Assembly (NCBI GenBank): GCA_905250025.1
Contig: CAJNOJ010000333.1
Coordinates: 27,220 to 46,171, forward strand
Source of the DNA: Adineta ricciae
Taxonomy: Eukaryota
Length of the DNA stretch: 18,952 nucleotides
Direction: 5' to 3'
The first letter of the stretch is position 1, and the number at the start of each line of letters is the position of its first letter. The position numbers were made by a program, and so were the translations under genes. Shown piece after piece: positions 4,083-18,361 of the stretch. The notes beneath the pieces were generated by a model that saw nothing but the letters and a program-made list of their open reading frames with translations, made no database searches and had not been told where the DNA came from.

Positions 4083-4593
4083 GCTGATCAATTGACTGAA
4101 GAACAAATAGCTGAATTTAAAGAAGCATTTTTTCTATTTGATAAACATGGTGATGGTACAATTACAACAAAACAATTAGGTACTGTAATGCGTAGTCTTG
4201 GTCATAATCCAACTGAAATTGAATTACAAAATATGATTGATGAAGTTGCTGCTGATGGTAAGATTTTAATCAATCAAATTTCATTTGATTCATTGTTTTT
4301 TTTTGTATTGTTAGGTAATGGTACAATTGATTTTCCTGAATTTTTAACAATGATGGTACGGAAAATGAAAGATACTGATTCAGAAGAAGAAATTCGCGAA
4401 GCATTCAATGTTTTTGATAAGAATGGTAATGGAATTATATCAATTGACGAATTTCGGTAATGAAAGAAAGATAAACATGCAAATTTATTTATTCTGTTTC
4501 TTCTTTTTTAAAGTCATGTTATGACAAATTTGGGTGAAAAACTTACCGATGAAGAACTTGATGAAATAGTTCGTGAAGCAGATGTTAATGGAG
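4083..4593 (+). CDS. Calmodulin-like EF-hand domain (exons 2-4 of the CaM-Hsp70SBD gene). Classic metazoan CaM gene structure, with the Met codon on a separate upstream exon.
   Basis: Exons 4083..4257, 4315..4456 and 4514..4593, with 57-bp introns (GTAAGA..TTAG, GTAATG..AAAG). Translation: [58 protein letters not shown]|[48 protein letters not shown]|[27 protein letters not shown]. Long stretches are identical to animal calmodulin. EF-hand loop positions are substituted: EF1 position 3 D->H, EF2 position 1 D->A, EF3 position 3 D->N, and EF4 is degenerate. Candidate Met-only exon 1: an ATG at 3767..3769 immediately followed by GTATGT. This is uncertain because it lies inside the PARP4-like last exon. 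Confidence 0.88.
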
Positions 4594-6405: not shown

Positions 6406-6847
6406 CCGATCATTATAATTGATTTCATTTCTTTTTAAGTTTGAATTACATTAAGAGTAACTCTCATATTTCTCGTTTTTAGATCAAAGGTTTAAATGTG
6501 AGTGTAAGGTGAAGATTAAGTCATCAATGTGTTATCTAAAAACGTTTTTACTCAGTAAGTTCTGTCCATAAAACCTATTCTATTTGATAGAAAATTAAAT
6601 TCTAAAACGAATGGACTAGATTTTATAGACTAGATAGGAACTCTTTAGTAAAATAGTTTTAATCTAAAATATCGTTTCATCAGATTAACTTCACACTGAT
6701 AACGAAAGCTTATGACGTAGATGTTCGTCACCAACAAGAGAATCTACTCACTTTTTCTGACATTTTGTCAACATACCTTTATAATTTTGATACGAAGAAT
6801 GAGACAAATAGTGGTCTTCATCATTTTTCTTATATCTTTCTTAAAAA

Positions 6848-7618
6848 ATGAAACAAATCTTTATGATATTTTTAATTATCATCTTGAATATAAAGAAGAA
6901 TGAATTGAAATGTCTTCAAGCTTGGAATGGAAGTGGAACAGGTGCATGGTATCGTGTAGATACTATTTGTAATTCTTCATTTATCTCAACAGAACTCATT
7001 AATTGTTTACCAACAATTATTTTACCTTTAAATTTAACGGAATTTACTGATGGATTCTATATTAGTTTAGGAGTTTTCAATCGTTTTAATGGAGTTTCGC
7101 TAGATATTGGTTTAACATTTGATTTGGAGAAAAATCGTTGGTTTTCTTACGGAAATGATCGATTAGGATGGAAATCCGGAAGTATTTCAATTGATTCCAA
7201 TGAAAATCGTTGTATTAATGTTTCTTTAAGTATTTTTAATGATTATATTCATTATATTATTCGAAACTCTAATGGTTCAATTATCTTAGGTGAAGATAAA
7301 TTTTATTCATTTCAAATTGATCCTCTATTAAATTTAACAAAAAATAATTCTGATTCATTTGGATTTTATCGTTTTGATAGTATTGCTCAAAGTAAAGAAA
7401 CATTGAAAAGTGGTTCTCAACTTATTCATGCGCAAATGTTCAATTGGACGGTTAAGTTTTCTTCAGGAGAAATTCTTCCAGCTAATGAATATAATATTGC
7501 TAAAAATATTAGTGGTTATTCACCAGGTATATGTTGTTCTAATCAAGAAATAAAAACAATTGAAATTCATCAACAAATCAAATGGAATCAATCGGATATA
7601 TCAATTCGTTATATTTAA
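6848..7618 (+). CDS. Secreted, heavily N-glycosylated protein of unknown family (single exon, 256 aa)
   Basis: ATG at 6848 and an uninterrupted 771-nt ORF. N-terminus MKQIFMIFLIIILNI is signal-peptide-like. There are about 13 N-x-S/T sequons and several Cys. I recognise no conserved domain. It is convergent with the Kelch gene, with 106 bp between the stops. Confidence 0.5.
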   Translation: MKQIFMIFLIIILNIKKNELKCLQAWNGSGTGAWYRVDTICNSSFISTELINCLPTIILPLNLTEFTDGFYISLGVFNRFNGVSLDIGLTFDLEKNRWFSYGNDRLGWKSGSISIDSNENRCINVSLSIFNDYIHYIIRNSNGSIILGEDKFYSFQIDPLLNLTKNNSDSFGFYRFDSIAQSKETLKSGSQLIHAQMFNWTVKFSSGEILPANEYNIAKNISGYSPGICCSNQEIKTIEIHQQIKWNQSDISIRYI

Positions 7619-7724
7619 TAATCAAAATACTTCAAATTTCTAAATTTTATGAAATGATTTTATTTTCAATATTTTGAATTCAATGAAAAAAATTACAATA
7701 TTTAGATTTTCGAATAAAATGTTG

Positions 7725-9392
7725 TCAATATAATTCATTTGTATTCAGAGAAACATTTCCATTTGATCCACTTGCAACTAATATAGTACCATCAAATAAA
7801 AGTGATGCGGTATGAGAATGTCGTATAGTACTCATATTCGATAGTATTGTCCAATTATTTGTTGATGGATCGTATAATTCAGCACTATTGAGATAAACAT
7901 TATTTTGACTTTGTCCACCTGTTACTAAAATTGTTCCATCCAATAAAACAGTCGCTGTATGAAAGTATCGCGCAGTTGTCATACTCGATGTTGTTATCCA
8001 ACTATTTGTTGAAGGATTATATAATTCAGCACTGTTCAGAGAATTACTGTTACCATAACCACCAATAACTAACACTTTTCCATTTTGTAGAAGAGATGCG
8101 GTATGAGAATATCGTGCAACAGTCATATTCGCCATTGTTGTCCAATTTCCTGTAGATGGATTATATAATTCAACACTATACAGAGGTGCATTATTATTAT
8201 ATCCACCTGCAACTAAGACTGTTCCGTTAAGTAAAACTGATGCAGTATGTCTAAATCTTGCAGAATTCATATTTCCTGTAGTTGACCAAGTGTTTATCGA
8301 TGGATCATACAATTCAGCACTGTTGACATAACCACTATTAGCAGAACCACCTGCAACTAATACTTTTCCGTTTTGTAAGAGTGATGCTGTGTGGTAGTAT
8401 CGTGTGATACTCATATTTCTCGTTGTTGTCCAATTACCTGTAGATAGATTGAATAATTCTACGCTATTCAGAGAAGCAACACTATTTTGTCCACCTGTTA
8501 TTAGTACTATCCCAGTTAATAAGAGTGATGAAGTGTGGTAACATCGAGTAGTTTTCATATTCCCTGTTATTGACCATATATTAGTAGATGGATCATACAG
8601 TTCAGCACTGTTAAGAAAAGCGTTATCATTCTGTCCACCAACAACTAATACTGATCCATTCGATAAAACTGATGCAGTATGTTTATTTCGGGCAATATTC
8701 AAGTTTTTCATCGTTGTCCATCCTAAAGAGTCAAAAAGTAAAAATCAGGTAAATTTACTCAATTAAAACTGTCAAATGTTGAAAGATAAATCGAAGTATT
8801 TCAATTACTAGACGATATTTTTCATTTATAAGAGAAGAGAGTTCATTATGCATTGATAAATATATAACATCAACATAATTACTATTTATCTTTTTCGTGA
8901 GGATTTTTCAAAATAGAAGAACGACAAGTAGTGAAATAATTATTTTAATTTTGCCTTACCTTTCAGTGATGCAGTTGTTGTGGATGTTGATTCTATAATT
9001 TGAGAGAATATCATAAAGAAAAACGAAGATTATTTTGCTTTTTCAAAATCTCGTTAAAATTCATTAAACTTACCATGTGTTGAGATTATTGTTACAATAA
9101 TCGATGTTCGATTAAGAAATACCATTGTAACATTCGAATAAGATTCAATTGTCAATGAATTATTATTTAAATTGAACAATTGGCACGTTTCATTTGAATT
9201 AAAATAATTCATAAGAGATATTGAATTGTTATTTAAATTAATCATTTGACAAATACATTCATCAAATGTTTTATTGAAAAAGATCTGATTTTCAGTACCA
9301 ATATATGTGTAGTCATATACTATTCCAATAGCAATCGTATGAATTGTAGGTATATAGAGTAGAATCAGGTTTAAAAAAATCACGTCTGTCAT
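7725..9392 (-). CDS. Secreted Kelch-repeat protein (7-blade beta-propeller) with an N-terminal signal peptide and a Cys/N-glycan-rich region
   Basis: Model: join(complement 9074..9392, complement 7725..8722). Exon 1 (MTDVIFLNLILLYIPTIHTIAIGIV...IISTHG) ends at a CATG|GTAAGT donor in phase 1. The acceptor TTTAG at 8723 then gives G-WTTMKNLNIARNKHTASVLSNGSVLVVGGQ... Seven tandem ~48-aa Kelch units follow (consensus AELYDPSTN.W..T.NM...R..HTASLL.NG.VLV.GG). An optional in-frame 33-nt micro-exon (complement 8960..8992, ESTSTTTASLK) is flanked by AG and GTAAGG and is also phase 1 to phase 1. Confidence 0.78.
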
Positions 9393-10160
9393 TCTACGAG
9401 TGTTTCTGGAGGAAATTTCAACTGATTTATATAGGAGGTTTTTTTCTATGCAACAGTTTCATCTAATTATTTTCCATTTAGAAGAGAAAAAGAGAGACAA
9501 AAGAAAACAAGGACCTCAGCATCTTTTGTTGAGTTATTGTCAAACAAAAATGCTATGAAACTATATTGTTATACATGAAATACAATTATCTTTATCTACC
9601 ATCATTGATTAACGAATGTTTGTTTATAGAATTTTTCCAAACGCGTTACACAACCTCGATATTCATAATTTTTCATGCAATTGAGTGCATATAATTAATA
9701 CGATGCAAACCTTTCCTTGATGAGAGTGCAAATGTTGGAAAAAAAGAAGAAAAAAATGTTGATATCAATAAGAATATAATTTATCAAAAAGAAGTAATTA
9801 TGATATCTTGTTCGATTTGAGAACTCATTTTGTTCTAAAAGATTTTTGTTAGTACCAAAAGAAAAATATTTGTTTAGTTTTTTTTCTCCATTGTAATAAT
9901 CAAAGTGCATGTTATAAAATGAAAGATAAAGAAGAAAATAATGCATTATCAGAACAATTGATAAGAAAAAAATGAGAAACTTTACTTATTTTACCTCATC
10001 ATTTTGAAAATAGAAGATCAGAAATGAAAACACATTCATCTTCAATAAATAGTTTGAATAAAAACGGAATTCCAGTAAATTAATAAGAGAAATTTTCTCT
10101 TAAACTGAACTTTTTCTCTTTTTTCTTTAAAAGATAAGTGTTATACCATCAGGATCACCT
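9393..10160. promoter_or_regulatory. Divergent (bidirectional) intergenic region between the Kelch gene (minus, ATG at 9392) and the permease gene (plus, ATG at 10161)
   Basis: 768 bp with no convincing ORF; A/T-rich and homopolymer-rich. Function is inferred from gene orientation only. Confidence 0.3.
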
Positions 10161-12101
10161 ATGAATGTCAATGATGAAACATCTGTTAATGATGTTCAAT
10201 TCAATCAAAATTTCTCTCAGGTAATAATCTTTTATTTTATTTTCATTATGACAAATGAGTTTTCATTTAGAGAAGATTTCTTAAAAAATTAATTCCAAAT
10301 TTTTTGCGAAAAAATTCTTCATCTGAAGATGTTGATAATCCATATGCAAATGAATATGCTGATACTGAAGTTTTAGTTCATGGAGAAAAAGTTGATTTAC
10401 ATCGAAATTTACAAGAACGACATATGATCATGATTGCATTAGGTGGAACGATTGGAACGGGATTATTTTTAGCATCTGGACAAGCTTTAGCATCGGCTGG
10501 ACCTGGTGGCTCTTTAGTATCTTATTTAATCATTTCTGTTATGGTTTATTTCGTTATGACGAGTTTAGGTAAAATTATTTGATTTCTTCAATGAAAAAGA
10601 CTTTTATGTTTTTTTTTAAAGCTGAATTAGCAACACAATATCCGATAAGTGGTTCATTTAATACATTTGGAAGTCGATTTGTTGATGAAGCTTTTGGATT
10701 TGCATTAGCATACAATTATTATTTTTCTTGGGTAACAACGATCGCAGGTGAATTAGTTGCTGCTGGTCTCATTGTTCAATATTGGTTGCCACATTTTCCT
10801 TCAATTATTTGGTCAATCCTGGGAATGTTAGTTATGTTTTTATTAAATGCATTTACAGTCAAAGGTTATGGTGAAGCTGAATATTGGTTTGCAATGATTA
10901 AGGTCATAACTGTACTCATATTTCTACTTGTTGGTGTTCTTGTTGATTCGGGTGCTATTGGAAAACCAAGAGAAACAATTGGTTTTAAGAATTGGAAAAT
11001 TGAAGGTGCACCTTTTGTTGGAGGAGTTGCTGGTGTTATTACAACATCAATTATATCTGGTTTTGCTTTTCAAGTACGAAGAATTTCGGTTTTTTTTCTC
11101 AAATATAATCTTCTATCGAATATATATAGGGAACAGAAGCAGTTGGAATTGCAGCTGGTGAAAGCTCCAATCCGAAAAAAGATGTTCCACGTGCAATGAA
11201 TGGAACAATTTGGCGTATTATTTTATTTTTTGTTGGTGCTATTTTTATTATGGGTTTAATTATTCCATATAATGATAAAAAATTAAGTCAAATTAATGGT
11301 GTTGACAGTATCGCTGTTTCCCCATTTACATTAGTATTTAGTCTATCGGGTATTCCAGGAGCTGATCATATTATGAATGTTGTTATTTTAACAACAATCT
11401 TATCAGCTGGTAATTCAGGTCTTTATTTATGTACAAGAATATTTTGGACTTTAGCAAATGAAGGCAAAGCACCGAAAATCTTTCGTCGTTTAACAAAAGG
11501 TGGAATACCAATTTATTGTTTAATTTTAACAACCGTTTTAGCAACTTCTTTATTTGGTTTATCATTTGTTGGAAATCAAGTTATTTACATTTGGTTAGTT
11601 AATATGACGAGTGTTATGGGTTTCATTGCTTGGTTTGGAATCGCTATTGCACATTGGAGATTTCGTCGAGCATTTCTCGCACAAGGTTATTCATTGAATG
11701 ATTTGGTTTATAAAGCGTTATTCTTTCCTGTTGGACCATTTTTGGCATCGCTACTTATTTTACTTTGTGTTTTTGGACAAGGTTATTCAGCATTTACACA
11801 AAAAACTTTTAATTGTACTCAGTTACATGAAGAAGAAACTTATCTTTTTGAATTCAATAATCAATATTTAATCGATAGCGGAAATTCAACAACGTGTACA
11901 AAAACAGTCTTTAATGTTCAAACATTTTTATCTGGTTATGTGATCTTACCAATCCTTGTTATTATGTTTTTCGTTTATAAATATGTTAAGAAAACGAAAT
12001 TTATTCCACTTAAAGATATTGATTTGCTTACTGATAGTGTTATGGAACGTGACCGTTTGAAACGAGAAAGAATACAACAATTACAACAAACAGACGCTTA
12101 A
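10161..12101 (+). CDS. Amino-acid permease of the APC superfamily, AAT/YAT family (LysP / Can1 / Gap1-like), about 593 aa, four exons
   Basis: Model: join(10161..10220,10271..10568,10622..11073,11130..12101), with introns of 50, 53 and 56 bp. Translation: MNVNDETSVNDVQFNQNFSQ|RRFLKKLIPNFLRKNSSSEDVDNPYANEYADTEVLVHGEKVDLHRNLQERHMIMIALGGTIGTGLFLASGQALASAGPGGSLVSYLIISVMVYFVMTSL(A)ELATQYPISGSFNTFGSRFVDEAFGFALAYNYYFSWVTTIAGELVAAG...GYGEAEYWFAMIKVITVLIFLLVGV...GFAFQ|GTEAVGIAAGESSNPKKDVPRAMNGTIWRIILFFVGAIF...MNVVILTTILSAGNSGLYLCTRIFWTLANEGKAPKIF..LTKGGIPIY...FIAWFGIAIAHWRFRRAF... These are all hallmark AAT/YAT motifs. A C-terminal loop insertion carries N-glycosylation sequons and Cys. AATAAA signals lie at 12136 and 12147. 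Confidence 0.85.
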
Positions 12102-12135
12102 TTTTATCTTCTACTTCAATTTCTCTTTTTTCTTC

Positions 12136-12152
12136 AATAAATTTTCAATAAA
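12136..12152 (+). promoter_or_regulatory. Tandem AATAAA polyadenylation-signal candidates, 35-50 nt downstream of the permease stop
   Basis: aataaa at 12136..12141 and 12147..12152. The permease stop is at 12099..12101. Confidence 0.4.
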
Positions 12153-12594
12153 AATCTAAACTAATTATTTAAGTTTCGTGTGTCAATATTCTTTCTTTCA
12201 TTAAGTATCATTTAAATAACACAGTTGACGCAAACATCTTGTGATTTGTCTTCTTCTTCATTTTGTGTTAATCTATGAAATCCTTTGTATCGATAGTTCC
12301 AATTACTAAACATCAAATTATTTCAGTTATTAATATTATTCAAATCAAACGTAATTTACCTATAAACAGCCACATGATACACAATCAAAAAACCCAAAAT
12401 CGATAAAAATATAATCAAACATATGATGAGAAAAAAATATAGTTTTGTTTTGTTAATTGTAATCGCCTGAAGATGTTTCAAATCAGTTAATAAGAATCGA
12501 ATTGTAGACCAATTTTCAACACCTGTATATGTATCTCCTTAGAAATAATAAATGAAATAAATTCAATATTTGAATAAACTAAACGTAAATTAAT

Positions 12595-14153
12595 TTATGA
12601 ATTACTAGTAGATGATTCTATTGTATGTTTCATGTGTATGTCATTATTCTTTTGTATTTGCTCAATAGTATATGGTTTGTCTGGAATAATGACACTATCA
12701 GATGGAATTAGCCTATATATATATCAAAAGTAGATATTGTATGAATATATAAAAATTAATTTTTACCTCGTTATATTACCGGAATATTCTCCCCAACAAA
12801 ATTCAATTAAAGGATTAAATCCTTCCCATTTATTATTATTTAGTACAGTTGGCTCATATGAATACATTGCATATATATTACACATTTCATCATCATGTCT
12901 TTGTCTAATTTTCCCAAATAAAATCTATTCTTTTGTATATAAAATTATTCGATCTTACCCGATGTTAATAATTCTATCATCATTGTTATCATAAACACAT
13001 TGACCAATAATAAAATCATTCTTTTCAATTTGTATAGATGATGAAAGTGGATAAAATGATTGAGGCCATTGTGGATTACTTTTACCAATCTGTAAAATAG
13101 TTTTATTTCGTACTCGATATATTGAAGATACCCTTCCTATGACAATAAATAGTTTCAATGATCTTCCATAAATATATACAAAAAAATCGAACCCCATTGA
13201 TGTGTATGATAGTGAAGAGCAAATATGGATATTGTAGGTCCAAGATAACGACATGAAAAGGGTGTTCGAATATCTAGAGAATTCAATTTGAGTAGGATAA
13301 AAGATACGTAAAAACCTTGTTCGAGTACCTTGTGTTCTTGGTGGTAAAGTGATATTCGATGTACCAGCTAAAAACATTCCTGCATGATACTTTCGCCTAT
13401 AAGATAAAAATGAAATCTTATCTAGAAAAAGGTGGTAACGGTATTTGAAATTATTTATTACATCTTTCGAGTAAAAAGAATTTGGATACCAGAATTATCA
13501 TTGGTAATAATTGGTAAATAATGAATATTCATTACAAGATATTTATATGATGTATTATGACCAACAACAAAACCAGTATCTTAATAGAATAACATTATGA
13601 TTTTTCTTTCTTATCTAGTGAAAAACACCTTTAGGTAATGCTAATGAAGATCCATTTCTTGACCAATCATAAATAATCATTTGTTTATTTCTGCATGCTG
13701 TTCCATCAAACCTATAAAAATAATTTTACTGTTTAATTTTTAAAGTCAAATTATTAAATAATACCAAATAGATTCATTAGATGTGGGAGTAACGCAAGCC
13801 AATGTGAGTATATGATGAGCTGTATTCATATTAACCAATGGTTTAAAATCAACTTCAGTTTTTGAAAGTAAATCATTTTCTCGATAAGTAAAATTTCAAA
13901 CTTACTAATCATCAATTTTTCATCAGGTAATTTATATTGGATATATACTTGTTGATCTCCCTAAAGATGTCAAGAATTATTTTTATAATCGTCGTTTTAT
14001 AATCATATTTACTTCTTTTGTTGTCACATTCTTCATAGTAAAATTAAAAGTGAAATTATCTTCATTATCATAAATATCTTGCGAATGAATGGATTTGATG
14101 TTAATAAGAAGAAAAATCAAAATATTTTGAATGACTAATATTTCTATATTCAT
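12595..14153 (-). CDS. Peptidylglycine alpha-hydroxylating monooxygenase / dopamine beta-hydroxylase-like protein (copper type II ascorbate-dependent monooxygenase fold). Secreted. The CuM His pair is absent.
   Basis: Model on the minus strand: exons 14013..14153 (MNIEILVIQNILIFLLINIKSIHSQ..., signal peptide), 13906..13960, 13765..13852, 13629..13711, 13462..13579, 12959..13396, 12780..12904, and a terminal exon at 12595..12680 (alternative acceptor 12694). Introns are 49-65 bp except the last, which is ~99 bp. All are GT-AG with consistent phases. Alignable with PHM: 'QVYIQYKLPDEKLMIIDFKPLVNMNTAHHILTLACVTPTSNESIW|FDGTACRNKQMIIYDWSRNGSSLALPK|DTGFVVGHNTSYKYLVMNIHYLP...|MRKYHAGMFLAG...SIYRVRNKTILQIGKSNPQWPQSFYP...GQCVYDNN...|GQRHDDEMCNIYAMY...'. 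The 26-nt intron alternative at exon 2/3 was rejected in favour of a 53-bp intron that restores the IDFKP alignment. The last exon is low confidence. Confidence 0.78.
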
Positions 14154-16066: not shown

Positions 16067-16687
16067 TAAGCAACATAAAAAAGCCAGTGGCGTTCGTTTC
16101 CTGTAAAAAAAATGAAAATATTTTCTTATAGAAGATATTGCATATTCTATTATTGATCAAGACATAAATCTGACTATAGTATGTTTCTTATTGGCAACCA
16201 ACACAAAACTGTAGTAGTCACTCGAAAAATGTGAATGTAAAATAACACTCCTACCGTAACTTAATTGCTGTGCCATTATTCGTATCCATTTCAAGAGTTG
16301 TCAGATGACACGTACAGATAGTTAAAAATGCAATTATTTATCAAAACGATAAAGAAAATCTAAAAAAGATAAATTTCATTTAAGCTGGATAACAAAGAAG
16401 TGACGCCCATTCGTTGACTCTTTTTTGAAAGAGTTAGAAAAATAGTAGATAAAAATCCTCACTTTAATCTCAATCTAATCGGCTACGAACTGAAGTCTCT
16501 TTTATGCACATTCCTCCATTTTACCTCCTTCTACTTTATTCATGTCAAATTACCTCCAATTCGTTTGCCCAAATATGTCAGCAAAATAAATACTGTTTCG
16601 AAACATTTATTCATCGACTTTCTTTCGACTAGTTAAAATAAAAAATTAATTTACTTCCACTTATTTTATCTCTTCTAAGTGACCATA

Positions 16688-17004
16688 TGATGCGTTATAG
16701 TGTTTACCAGGAAATTCTATCTGTTTTCGGTATCAACTGATTTCCCGGAAATTGAATTTCTTGATCAGACAAACCGAACAGTACAAATAGTTATAATGCT
16801 CATATAGGGCATCTGGAGGGCGAGGGTGTGAGGTGGGTGTCGGTAGGGATTTCTCTCAGTGAGGGTACCGGGTGGGTGTCTGTGCCCTATATGAGCATTA
16901 TAACTATTTGTACTGTTCGGTTTGTCTGATCAAGAAATTCAATTTCCGGGAAATTAGTTGGTACCGAAAACATAGAATTTCCTGGTAAACACTATAACGC
17001 ATCA
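16688..17004. repeat. Foldback element: two ~123-bp arms (16688..16811 and 16883..17004) that are reverse complements at about 97% identity, around a 71-bp G-rich loop. MITE-like, foldback-transposon-like or a hairpin-RNA locus.
   Basis: Direct reading: the left arm tgatgcgttatagtgtttaccaggaaattctatctgttttcggtatcaactgatttcccgg...gctcatatagggca equals the reverse complement of the right arm, except for a 2-bp indel and two substitutions. The loop is tctggagggcgagggtgtgaggtgggtgtcggtagggatttctctcagtgagggtaccgggtgggtgtctg. No clear target-site duplication. Confidence 0.8.
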
Positions 17005-17297
17005 AATCTTTCCGGCCGGCTATTCAAAGAATACTGTACCTCCCCTCCTCCCGCTACGGCAAAATGTATCCATATGGATATATCCGGCTGGGAAGGGTTA
17101 AATTACTAATATCATAATGTGAGATATACCAGATCTTTTTATGTAGGCTCCGTAAACTACTGCCGTTGTACATATCACATCCGGGAATTGTGTTCAAACA
17201 ATTACCTTTTACAACAGAATTTTTAAAAAACACAGAAAAATATCTCCTTTGAAACAAGAAAGGAAGAAGTGTAAGCTTGGTGAATAAGAAAAAAACT

Positions 17298-17439
17298 AAG
17301 CTCAGATTTGAATTCTACGGCATCGATTACCCTTCGGTCAACCCTTAGTGTGAACATTATTATTCTATGCATAGTTAATTAATAATTAGTTAAAGCTAAC
17401 CTCAGATTGAAGTTCCCCGATCTCGATTATCGTACCGGT
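17298..17439 (+). repeat. Two degenerate ~42-47-bp direct repeats (about 75% identical) flanking an AT-rich palindromic spacer
   Basis: Unit A 17298..17338: aagctcagatttgaattctacggcatcgattacccttcggt. Unit B 17393..17439: aagctaacctcagattgaagttccccgatctcgattatcgtaccggt. The spacer contains ttaattaataattagttaa. Confidence 0.35.
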
Positions 17440-18361
17440 AATCATTTTCTAACAACTATCGATCAATTTCATTGATTTTAGAAATGCTCATTTCTGATTG
17501 AATAGGACAGACAGACAAACTTTAAGCTTTTTAGCACAGCATCTAAATGCTGTATAATCCTTTCTCTCAGAAAAGGGAAATAAAAAATCCCAAAAAAGCC
17601 TTAAAAGGATGAAAATTTCAGAAAAACATTCAAGAACTCGTTTCCTCACCTCCAGATACACAACTCGATGGGCTCCATCGACTTCAATCATAAAAAAATC
17701 TCCACACGCAACCTCATGACTGAAACATAATACGATACGATTTGTGGACCGCTGTTAAGGCAAATGAATAAGACTCACTTTTTGGGTACATAAAAAGGTG
17801 AATGACTGGTATATCTACTACGCCTTTAGTTACTTGTCTACTAATACACGAAAATGTGAATAAATATTTTCCATTTATACAGTCGCGAATATGCTAGTTT
17901 TTGTATTTTTTCTTGTTTTTGTGAATGTTCGCTTATACGGAGCTTTTGATGTCATTTTTTGTATACGATTGTTTTTATCCGTTCTTATCAACCGTTGTAT
18001 ATAAAATAAAAATTTGTTTTCACCAATAAGCTTATGCATTCTTCATTATATTTACAAGGAAAATGTAATCGGTGTCAAGCTGAGACACAATTTCGTTTGG
18101 ATGACTTCACAACGCTCAAGCCAATATGATTCGGTCGGTTAGTTTCATTTTACGACGATCATCCTGGACCGATCAAAACGTATGCAAAAGTTTCTTTGAC
18201 AAACAGAAACAATAATAAACAAGAATTCTTTACGATTAATATTAAAATAATTTCATTAATATATAAATATCAATAGAAGTTGAAAATTTGAACCAGAGCG
18301 AGTAAATTCTTTTTAAGATTTATTTTGAGTATTTTTTGTATAGTTCATTGTAAACCAGAGC

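Follow-up and report, generated by a model that had tools for sequence, protein, structure and literature searches.

Among the genes of the bdelloid rotifer Adineta ricciae is one encoding an amino-acid permease whose closest non-rotifer relatives are fungal, and the present analysis concerns the structure, relationships and probable history of this gene. The DNA under study is a stretch of 18,952 nt, hereafter the window, from contig CAJNOJ010000333.1 of assembly GCA_905250025.1 (positions 27,220-46,171 of the forward strand); all coordinates are window positions, and permease residues are numbered according to a 619-aa model. The permease gene occupies 10024-12101 on the forward strand (+) and is composed of five exons and four introns. 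Its neighbours encode PARP/VIT/VWA domains, EF-hands, six Kelch repeats and a Cu2_monooxygenase domain of the PHM type, their animal-type origin being judged by Pfam domains and not by an index of horizontal gene transfer (HGT). An initial annotation, made from the letters of the window alone, had named PARP-VIT-VWA, PHM and Kelch genes beside the permease, and Pfam matches bear out each of these assignments.

The same annotation described the permease as a gene with three short introns and a 593-aa product. An amino-acid permease does lie at this place, as demonstrated by a match to Pfam AA_permease PF00324 (412.7 bits against a cut-off of 24.6; E=2.5e-123) that spans residues 71-561 of the 593-aa model and profile positions 1-465 of 470, and removal of the three GT-AG introns of 50, 53 and 56 bp (10221-10270, 10569-10621 and 11074-11129) does yield an open 593-aa frame. 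The proposed start at 10161, however, is an internal Met, and an upstream exon (10024-10074) together with the 59-bp intron that follows it had been overlooked. The resulting 619-aa model is 100% identical to A. ricciae GenBank entry CAF1404238.1 (UniRef100_A0A815LA60), and public annotation thus already holds the gene as an "amino acid permease/SLC12A domain-containing protein", without a gene name. The 17-aa first exon is also present in A. vaga and in a second A. ricciae copy, and the position of the intron that follows it is kept in A. vaga.

All four introns, of 59, 50, 53 and 56 bp, are of the GT-AG type, interrupt the frame in phases 0, 0, 1 and 0, and contain 17-25% GC. Exon 1 (51 nt) encodes Met1-Pro17 and is separated by intron 1 (10075-10133, 20% GC), which lies directly 5' of an I[SN]VI motif, from exon 2 (10134-10220, residues 18-46), the exon that holds the Met at 10161. 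Beyond intron 2, exon 3 (10271-10568) encodes residues 47-145 plus one nucleotide of the next codon, and with them the N-terminal tail, transmembrane helix (TM) 1 with its GGTIGTG motif, and TM2. Intron 3 falls at MTSL|AEL and is followed by exon 4 (10622-11073, residues 146-296), which spans TM3-TM6a and supplies Ser181, Trp182 and Glu189 of TM3, Lys239 of TM5, and Phe293-Gln296 of TM6. Intron 4 falls at AFQ|GTE, after which exon 5 (11130-12101) encodes residues 297-619, comprising TM6b-TM12 and the C-terminal tail, and ends in a TAA stop codon (12099-12101). Two AATAAA hexamers (12136 and 12147, together 12136-12152), matching the polyadenylation signal at the level of sequence, lie 35-46 nt past the stop. 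A scan of 9400-12600 for bacterial promoters and terminators detected no enrichment (14 promoter-like sites versus 19 expected), a result that is irrelevant to a eukaryotic gene.

Family, fold and binding site

Comparison with curated protein models places the permease in the APC superfamily, on the LysP-like branch that links bacterial AAT with fungal YAT permeases. The best NCBIfam model is the LysP-type PRK10836/NF008094, with 559.5 bits against a curated cut-off of 735, followed by the fungal YAT model TIGR00913 (2A0310), with 433.4 bits against 578.7; the rotifer protein is LysP-like, and is not a bacterial LysP orthologue. The yeast YAT permeases Alp1, Can1 and Lyp1 share with it the PF00324 domain, the overall architecture and cytoplasmic tails, and S. 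cerevisiae Alp1 is 41% identical, but as a group they are more distant than the LysP-like proteins. Amino-acid transport in animals normally relies on transporters of the SLC7 type. While these (CAT1, LAT1, y+LAT, xCT) share with the permease the APC superfamily and the LeuT fold, they belong to a different, PF13520-type family, with 14-19% identity when solved structures are aligned with the model and sequence-search E-values of 1e-4 to 1e-8.

The sole close solved structure is that of Pseudomonas aeruginosa LysP (PaLysP; PDB 9eyd), which is 50% identical over 430 residues (E about 1e-139). An AlphaFold2 model of the rotifer protein, built on 47 homologues, has a predicted local distance difference test score (pLDDT) of 80.8, with a core above 90, and a predicted template-modelling score of 0.80, and a Foldseek search with this model returned 9eyd_A as its best match (template-modelling score 0.87 by target length), other top matches being GkApcT, AdiC and LAT1. 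The fold as modelled is that of a 12-TM, LeuT-type protein with a 5+5 inverted repeat. Confidence is very low over the first ~85 residues, and the N-terminal tail of ~85-90 residues is probably cytoplasmic and disordered.

Nine residues of PaLysP have been assigned to substrate contact or coupling, namely G33, N104, W105, E112, K162, F215, S216, Q218 and S377 (PMC12764776). The corresponding rotifer residues are, in the same order, G110, S181, W182, E189, K239, F293, A294, Q296 and T456, of which six (G110, W182, E189, K239, F293 and Q296) are identical. The identical six include the residues of the gate as well as the carboxylate ligand and the proposed proton-coupling Lys, and both positions proposed to confer lysine specificity (N104 and S377 of PaLysP) are polar and uncharged in the rotifer protein. 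Together these features suggest an amino-acid:H+ symporter with a likely preference for basic amino acids, and they are compatible with lysine transport without being proof of it. The protein would probably reside in the plasma membrane and work by alternating access, its cargo most likely being lysine or another basic amino acid, with TM1, TM3, TM6 and TM10 as the substrate-binding helices and Lys239 in TM5 as the proton coupler, by comparison with P. aeruginosa LysP.

Despite this likeness, several features set the rotifer gene apart from bacterial LysP: the four introns, the N-terminal tail of ~90 residues, a Cys- and sequon-bearing loop of ~35 residues described below, and the replacements of Asn104 by Ser, Ser216 by Ala and Ser377 by Thr. 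The CadC partner on which the bacterial regulatory role of LysP depends would likewise have no counterpart in the rotifer. Among 15 bdelloid paralogues, the gating Trp of TM3 (W182) is replaced by Gly or Ala in four and the Gln of TM6 (Q296) by Gly in six, which suggests altered substrate specificity within an expanded family.

Relatives and probable donor

The distribution of the permease was assessed from the best 120 database matches and from the named nearest representatives of clusters formed at 50% identity. The best 120 matches fall into three tiers, the first consisting of bdelloids (A. ricciae, A. vaga, A. steineri and five Rotaria taxa; 59-99% identity), the second of fungi (Kickxellomycotina, Basidiobolus, Glomeromycotina and Mucorales; 44-53%), and the third of bacterial LysP (Providencia, Arsenophonus and Bacillales; 48-51%). 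When 1.84 billion cluster representatives at 50% identity were scanned exhaustively with HMMER, none proved closer than these bdelloid, fungal and bacterial matches. Of the 20 nearest named representatives, 18 are fungal and span Harpellales, Mucorales, Mortierellales, chytrids, Amanita, Mycena, Saitoella, Saccharomycodes and S. cerevisiae Alp1; the other two, an ENA sequence that clusters with bacteria and a JGI "lysine-specific permease", are LysP-like and cluster or score as bacterial LysP-type. Non-bdelloid animals appear neither among the best 120 matches nor among the 20 named representatives, monogonont, seisonid and acanthocephalan genomes not having been searched directly.

Relationships were examined with neighbour-joining trees built on Kimura-corrected distances. 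Midpoint rooting of a first, small tree was uninformative, and that tree was replaced by one of 199 taxa that includes distant representatives. In a 74-taxon tree the rotifers are monophyletic (100/100), bacteria are split from rotifers plus fungi (100/100), and the fungi are never monophyletic to the exclusion of the rotifers (0/100). The 199-taxon tree likewise recovers a single rotifer clade (200/200) that groups with fungi without bacteria in every replicate (200/200) and with bacteria in none (0/200); within the fungi, the rotifers join Kickxellomycotina only in 189/200 replicates and fall inside a clade of at least 15 Kickxellomycotina in 172/200. Signature columns of the alignment, which require no substitution model, point in the same direction, though with some conflict: 11 are common to the rotifers and Kickxellomycotina only, 11 to the rotifers and all fungi, 7 to the rotifers and bacteria only, and 2 to the rotifers and other fungi only. 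One Rotaria sordida protein (P0004, 629 aa) was left out of the trees; its deposited model contains the TM2-TM5 segment twice, probably through the merging of tandem duplicates or as an artefact of assembly or annotation.

The closest non-rotifer relatives are LysP-like permeases of early-diverging fungi (the Kickxellomycotina Tieghemiomyces, Ramicandelaber and Dipsacomyces, and also Basidiobolus and Mucorales), which are 46-55% identical to the rotifer protein and share with it a eukaryotic N-terminal tail, the 11 Kickxellomycotina-only signature residues and Ser at the position of LysP Asn104, a TM3 residue present in 14/25 fungi and in no sampled bacterium. In contrast to the rotifer gene, all four of the closest fungal genes checked (Tieghemiomyces, Basidiobolus, Dipsacomyces and Ramicandelaber) are intronless, and the fungal homologues have a GC content at third codon positions (GC3) of 0.57-0.73, lack the loop insertion between TM11 and TM12, and keep Ser at the positions of LysP Ser216 and Ser377.

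These data make it probable that the gene, encoding a LysP-like APC permease, was transferred horizontally from a Kickxellomycotina-like fungus (Zoopagomycota) into an ancestor of bdelloids and was subsequently domesticated. The ancestor of the sampled bdelloids (Adineta and Rotaria) would have been the recipient, and a relative of present Kickxellomycotina would be the most likely donor. Many Zoopagomycota live as associates or parasites of small animals. The foreign origin that the initial annotation had proposed is accordingly supported, both by the restriction of the permease to bdelloids among the animals in the ranked lists and by its placement with fungi. That proposal would have been refuted by a fungal or protist host to which YAT permeases are native or by a vertically consistent animal tree; the host is an animal, and the tree, with its one rotifer clade nested among fungal sequences, is the opposite of a vertical one.

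Two other histories must be considered alongside transfer from a fungus. Firstly, a LysP gene may have passed directly from a bacterium into the bdelloid ancestor, the grouping with fungi being either an artefact or the trace of a separate bacterial origin of the fungal genes. In favour of such an event, LysP is nearly as similar to the rotifer proteins as are the fungal sequences (48-51% versus 44-53% identity), the curated model that scores highest, PRK10836, is of the bacterial LysP type, 7 signature columns are common to rotifers and bacteria alone, and most HGT candidates in bdelloids have been reported as bacterial (PMC5916493). Direct bacterial transfer is nevertheless unlikely given that no replicate joins rotifers to bacteria while all replicates of both the 74- and the 199-taxon trees join them to fungi, that fungi but not bacteria have 22 signature columns in common with the rotifers, and that Ser in place of Asn104 is seen in 14/25 fungi and in none of the bacteria sampled.

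Secondly, the permease may have been present in the opisthokont ancestor and inherited vertically, being kept in fungi and bdelloids and lost from all other animal lineages. From chytrids to Dikarya the family occurs widely among fungi, and it is thus old in the fungal lineage. Against it, many independent losses would be needed across Metazoa and their unicellular relatives, no other animal occurs among the listed matches or named representatives, and the rotifers nest within one fungal subphylum instead of standing as sister to all fungi (189/200). Vertical inheritance is for these reasons highly improbable.

Several observations weigh against transfer from a Kickxellomycotina-like fungus, or against the functional assignment that accompanies it. 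The trees are neighbour-joining trees on a simple corrected distance and not maximum-likelihood trees, the mean rotifer-fungus and rotifer-bacterium distances are close (0.76 versus 0.81), 7 signature columns agree with bacteria only, and named bacterial sampling is narrow (Morganellaceae and Bacillales). The absence of the permease from other animals is drawn from ranked lists and not from direct searches of monogonont, seisonid or acanthocephalan genomes. Finally, the protein scores under the curated cut-offs of both the LysP and the YAT model, and three of its binding-site residues differ from those of LysP, so that specificity for lysine is tentative.

Integration into the bdelloid genome

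A third explanation, that the gene derives from a fungal or bacterial contaminant of the assembly, has nothing in its favour beyond the non-animal affinity of the protein, and it is refuted by several features of the locus. The four introns are of a host type that the closest fungal genes do not have, the median intron of A. ricciae being 55 bp (PMC5916493). Codon usage is likewise that of the host: GC3 is 0.152 in the permease and 0.162 in its pooled neighbours, far from the fungal range, and relative synonymous codon usage is correlated between the two at r=0.95. The PARP/VIT/VWA, Kelch and PHM-type genes lie on the same contig, and another A. ricciae contig (L001), which carries a permease (P0001) 99% identical to that of the window, aligns collinearly with the window at 92.8% identity over 17 kb. 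Independently assembled genomes of at least eight named bdelloid taxa, that of A. vaga at chromosome level among them, moreover contain orthologues. In a search for spliced transcripts, P0131 proved to be a further genomic contig fragment of A. ricciae, encoding 200 aa identical to the window permease, and P0017 a genomic Logan contig.

Comparison of the two A. ricciae copies gives a ratio of nonsynonymous to synonymous substitution rates (dN/dS, Nei-Gojobori) of 0.14, and comparison of A. ricciae with A. vaga gives 0.19, indicating that the gene is under purifying selection. Together with the conserved splice sites and the AATAAA hexamers, these low ratios lend indirect support to transcription and correct splicing. 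Domestication, which the initial annotation had claimed on the strength of introns and host-like AT-rich codons, is thus upheld by these two features and further by selection, by linkage to the PARP/VIT/VWA, Kelch and PHM genes and by the collinear second copy. When the introns, codon usage, dN/dS, second copy, distribution and tree are considered together, they point to an ancient, integrated and functional gene. On a 13.9-Mb chromosome of A. vaga (CP075497) the orthologue is found at 12.75 Mb, where the permease gene alone aligns with the A. ricciae sequence (82% nucleotide identity) and the neighbouring genes differ; synteny therefore offers no help in dating the insertion.

Comparison of gene structures and clades nevertheless suggests an order of events. 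Three introns, those before I[SN]VI, at MTSL|AEL (phase 1) and at AFQ|GTE, recur at matching positions in a short-form paralogue from A. steineri, a paralogue from Rotaria and the Adineta long form, while the one that follows residue 46 is confined to the long form of Adineta. The simplest history would be one in which host-type short spliceosomal introns were gained at the three shared positions soon after transfer, before the family expanded; the gene would also have taken on the AT-rich codon usage of its host. The bdelloid permeases form at least three clades, and the long-form and short-form clades each contain both Adineta and Rotaria sequences. Acquisition and the first duplication thus precede the split between the two genera, and the transfer is an old one, common to Adineta and Rotaria and not particular to the A. 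ricciae genome. Duplication would have produced several paralogous clades by the time the genera diverged, after which the Adineta long-form clade would have gained its longer N-terminal tail and its extracellular loop.

Individual copies depart from this shared intron pattern. Two bdelloid-like contigs, L010 (Logan SRR27500695) and P0019 (ENA), encode permease paralogues 66-68% identical to that of the window in which the reading frame is unbroken across AFQ|GTE, indicating that this intron was later lost from, or never gained by, some copies. In Rotaria sp. Silwood1 (L004, 8397-9662), the MTSL|AEL intron measures 1,266 bp, as compared with 53 bp in A. ricciae, in agreement with the longer introns reported for Rotaria.

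The loop that distinguishes the Adineta long form consists of about 35 residues inserted between TM11 and TM12 (11802-11906, residues ~521-555), with two conserved Cys (C525 and C552) and two sequons (N524-C-T and N548-S-T, the latter varying as N[SA]T). It is present only in the Adineta long form and in a 77%-identical fragment (P0125), and is absent from all other aligned homologues, namely short-form bdelloid paralogues, fungi and bacteria. AlphaFold2 renders it as a low-confidence beta-hairpin. In the 12-TM topology of APC proteins both termini are cytoplasmic, so that the TM11-TM12 loop faces outward. The extracellular loop with N-glycosylation sequons that the initial annotation had predicted is therefore present at the level of sequence, and the loop may be both glycosylated and disulfide-bonded. 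The insertion was also considered as an overlooked intron, a possibility ruled out by its being in frame and by the retention of both Cys in three Adineta species and a fourth related sequence.

Large-scale acquisition of genes by horizontal transfer in animals has its textbook example in the bdelloids, about 10% of whose genes are foreign and mostly of ancient origin. In A. ricciae, 12.5% of genes, or roughly 6,000, are HGT candidates, and ~80% of the candidates that cluster with non-metazoan sequences occur in all four bdelloid genomes analysed (PMC5916493). Many such genes occur as pairs or quartets, and candidates are customarily validated by the presence of introns and by linkage to metazoan genes (PMC5916493, PMC3499245). 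The permease resembles other bdelloid HGT genes in its non-metazoan best matches, acquired introns, metazoan-type linkage, occurrence in several taxa and multiple copies (PMC3499245, PMC5916493, PMC11258130), a combination reported for most of the A. ricciae candidates. By the criteria of Nowell 2018 (PMC5916493), it has non-metazoan best matches with no non-bdelloid metazoan orthologue in the ranked lists, it groups by neighbour-joining within a non-metazoan clan (fungi 200/200, Kickxellomycotina 189/200), and it carries four introns beside genes that are metazoan-type by Pfam, on a scaffold not dominated by foreign genes.

Horizontal transfer of this kind is well documented in bdelloids, and the permease leaves general knowledge of the phenomenon unchanged. 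A literature search did not find the permease named in bdelloid HGT papers or their supplementary tables. What is new is the corrected gene model, the proposal of a fungal donor, the order of domestication events and the comparison of the binding site. The gene adds to the foreign genes of bdelloids a membrane transporter, as opposed to a soluble enzyme, for which a fungal subphylum can plausibly be named as donor, and its datable succession of transfer, intron gain, duplication before the Adineta/Rotaria split and lineage-specific loop insertion makes it a convenient model for the conversion of an intronless microbial gene into an animal one.

A more speculative extension, put forward only tentatively, is that a single Kickxellomycotina-like gene captured by an early bdelloid seeded an animal-specific family of proton-coupled amino-acid importers that has since diversified in substrate, the Adineta loop possibly being glycosylated and stabilised by a disulfide. 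If so, bdelloids would possess a mode of nutrient uptake that other animals lack, and H+-coupled, microbial-type amino-acid uptake may contribute to bdelloid nutrition.

Neighbouring genes and other bdelloid loci

The remaining genes of the window and of its relatives display features of their own. The EF-hand exon of the window (4092-4460, +) encodes a calmodulin-like protein; the initial annotation had called it identical to animal calmodulin, from which its translation differs. On the second A. ricciae contig (L001, 1-6351), the deposited model joins the PARP-VIT-VWA domains and the EF-hands into one product of 1921 aa, which may be a merged annotation of two genes. The Kelch gene is a single-exon open reading frame of 328 aa on the reverse strand (7725-8711, -), its six repeats matching Kelch_1 (E=5.7e-69) and cross-aligning at the DNA level with 66-72% identity.

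Further downstream, at 16685-17007, lies a palindromic element of ~323 bp, with arms at 16685-16811 and 16883-17007 that are 93-98% complementary and are separated by a spacer of 71 nt. The element is also present in L001, and the segment that follows it in the window (17008-17721) is ~465 bp longer than its L001 counterpart; the element could be of the miniature inverted-repeat transposable element type or could reflect an insertion polymorphism.

In A. vaga (L002, CP075497, locus 6560-9203), the permease orthologue adjoins a type III polyketide synthase (Chal_sti_synt) and an FAD-dependent monooxygenase, domains that are unusual for animals and may mark further foreign genes. In A. steineri (L005, CAJOAY010001539, 3222-5463, -), the short-form paralogue lies near a gene with pentatricopeptide (PPR) repeats and a DYW deaminase domain, an architecture typical of plant organelle RNA-editing factors.

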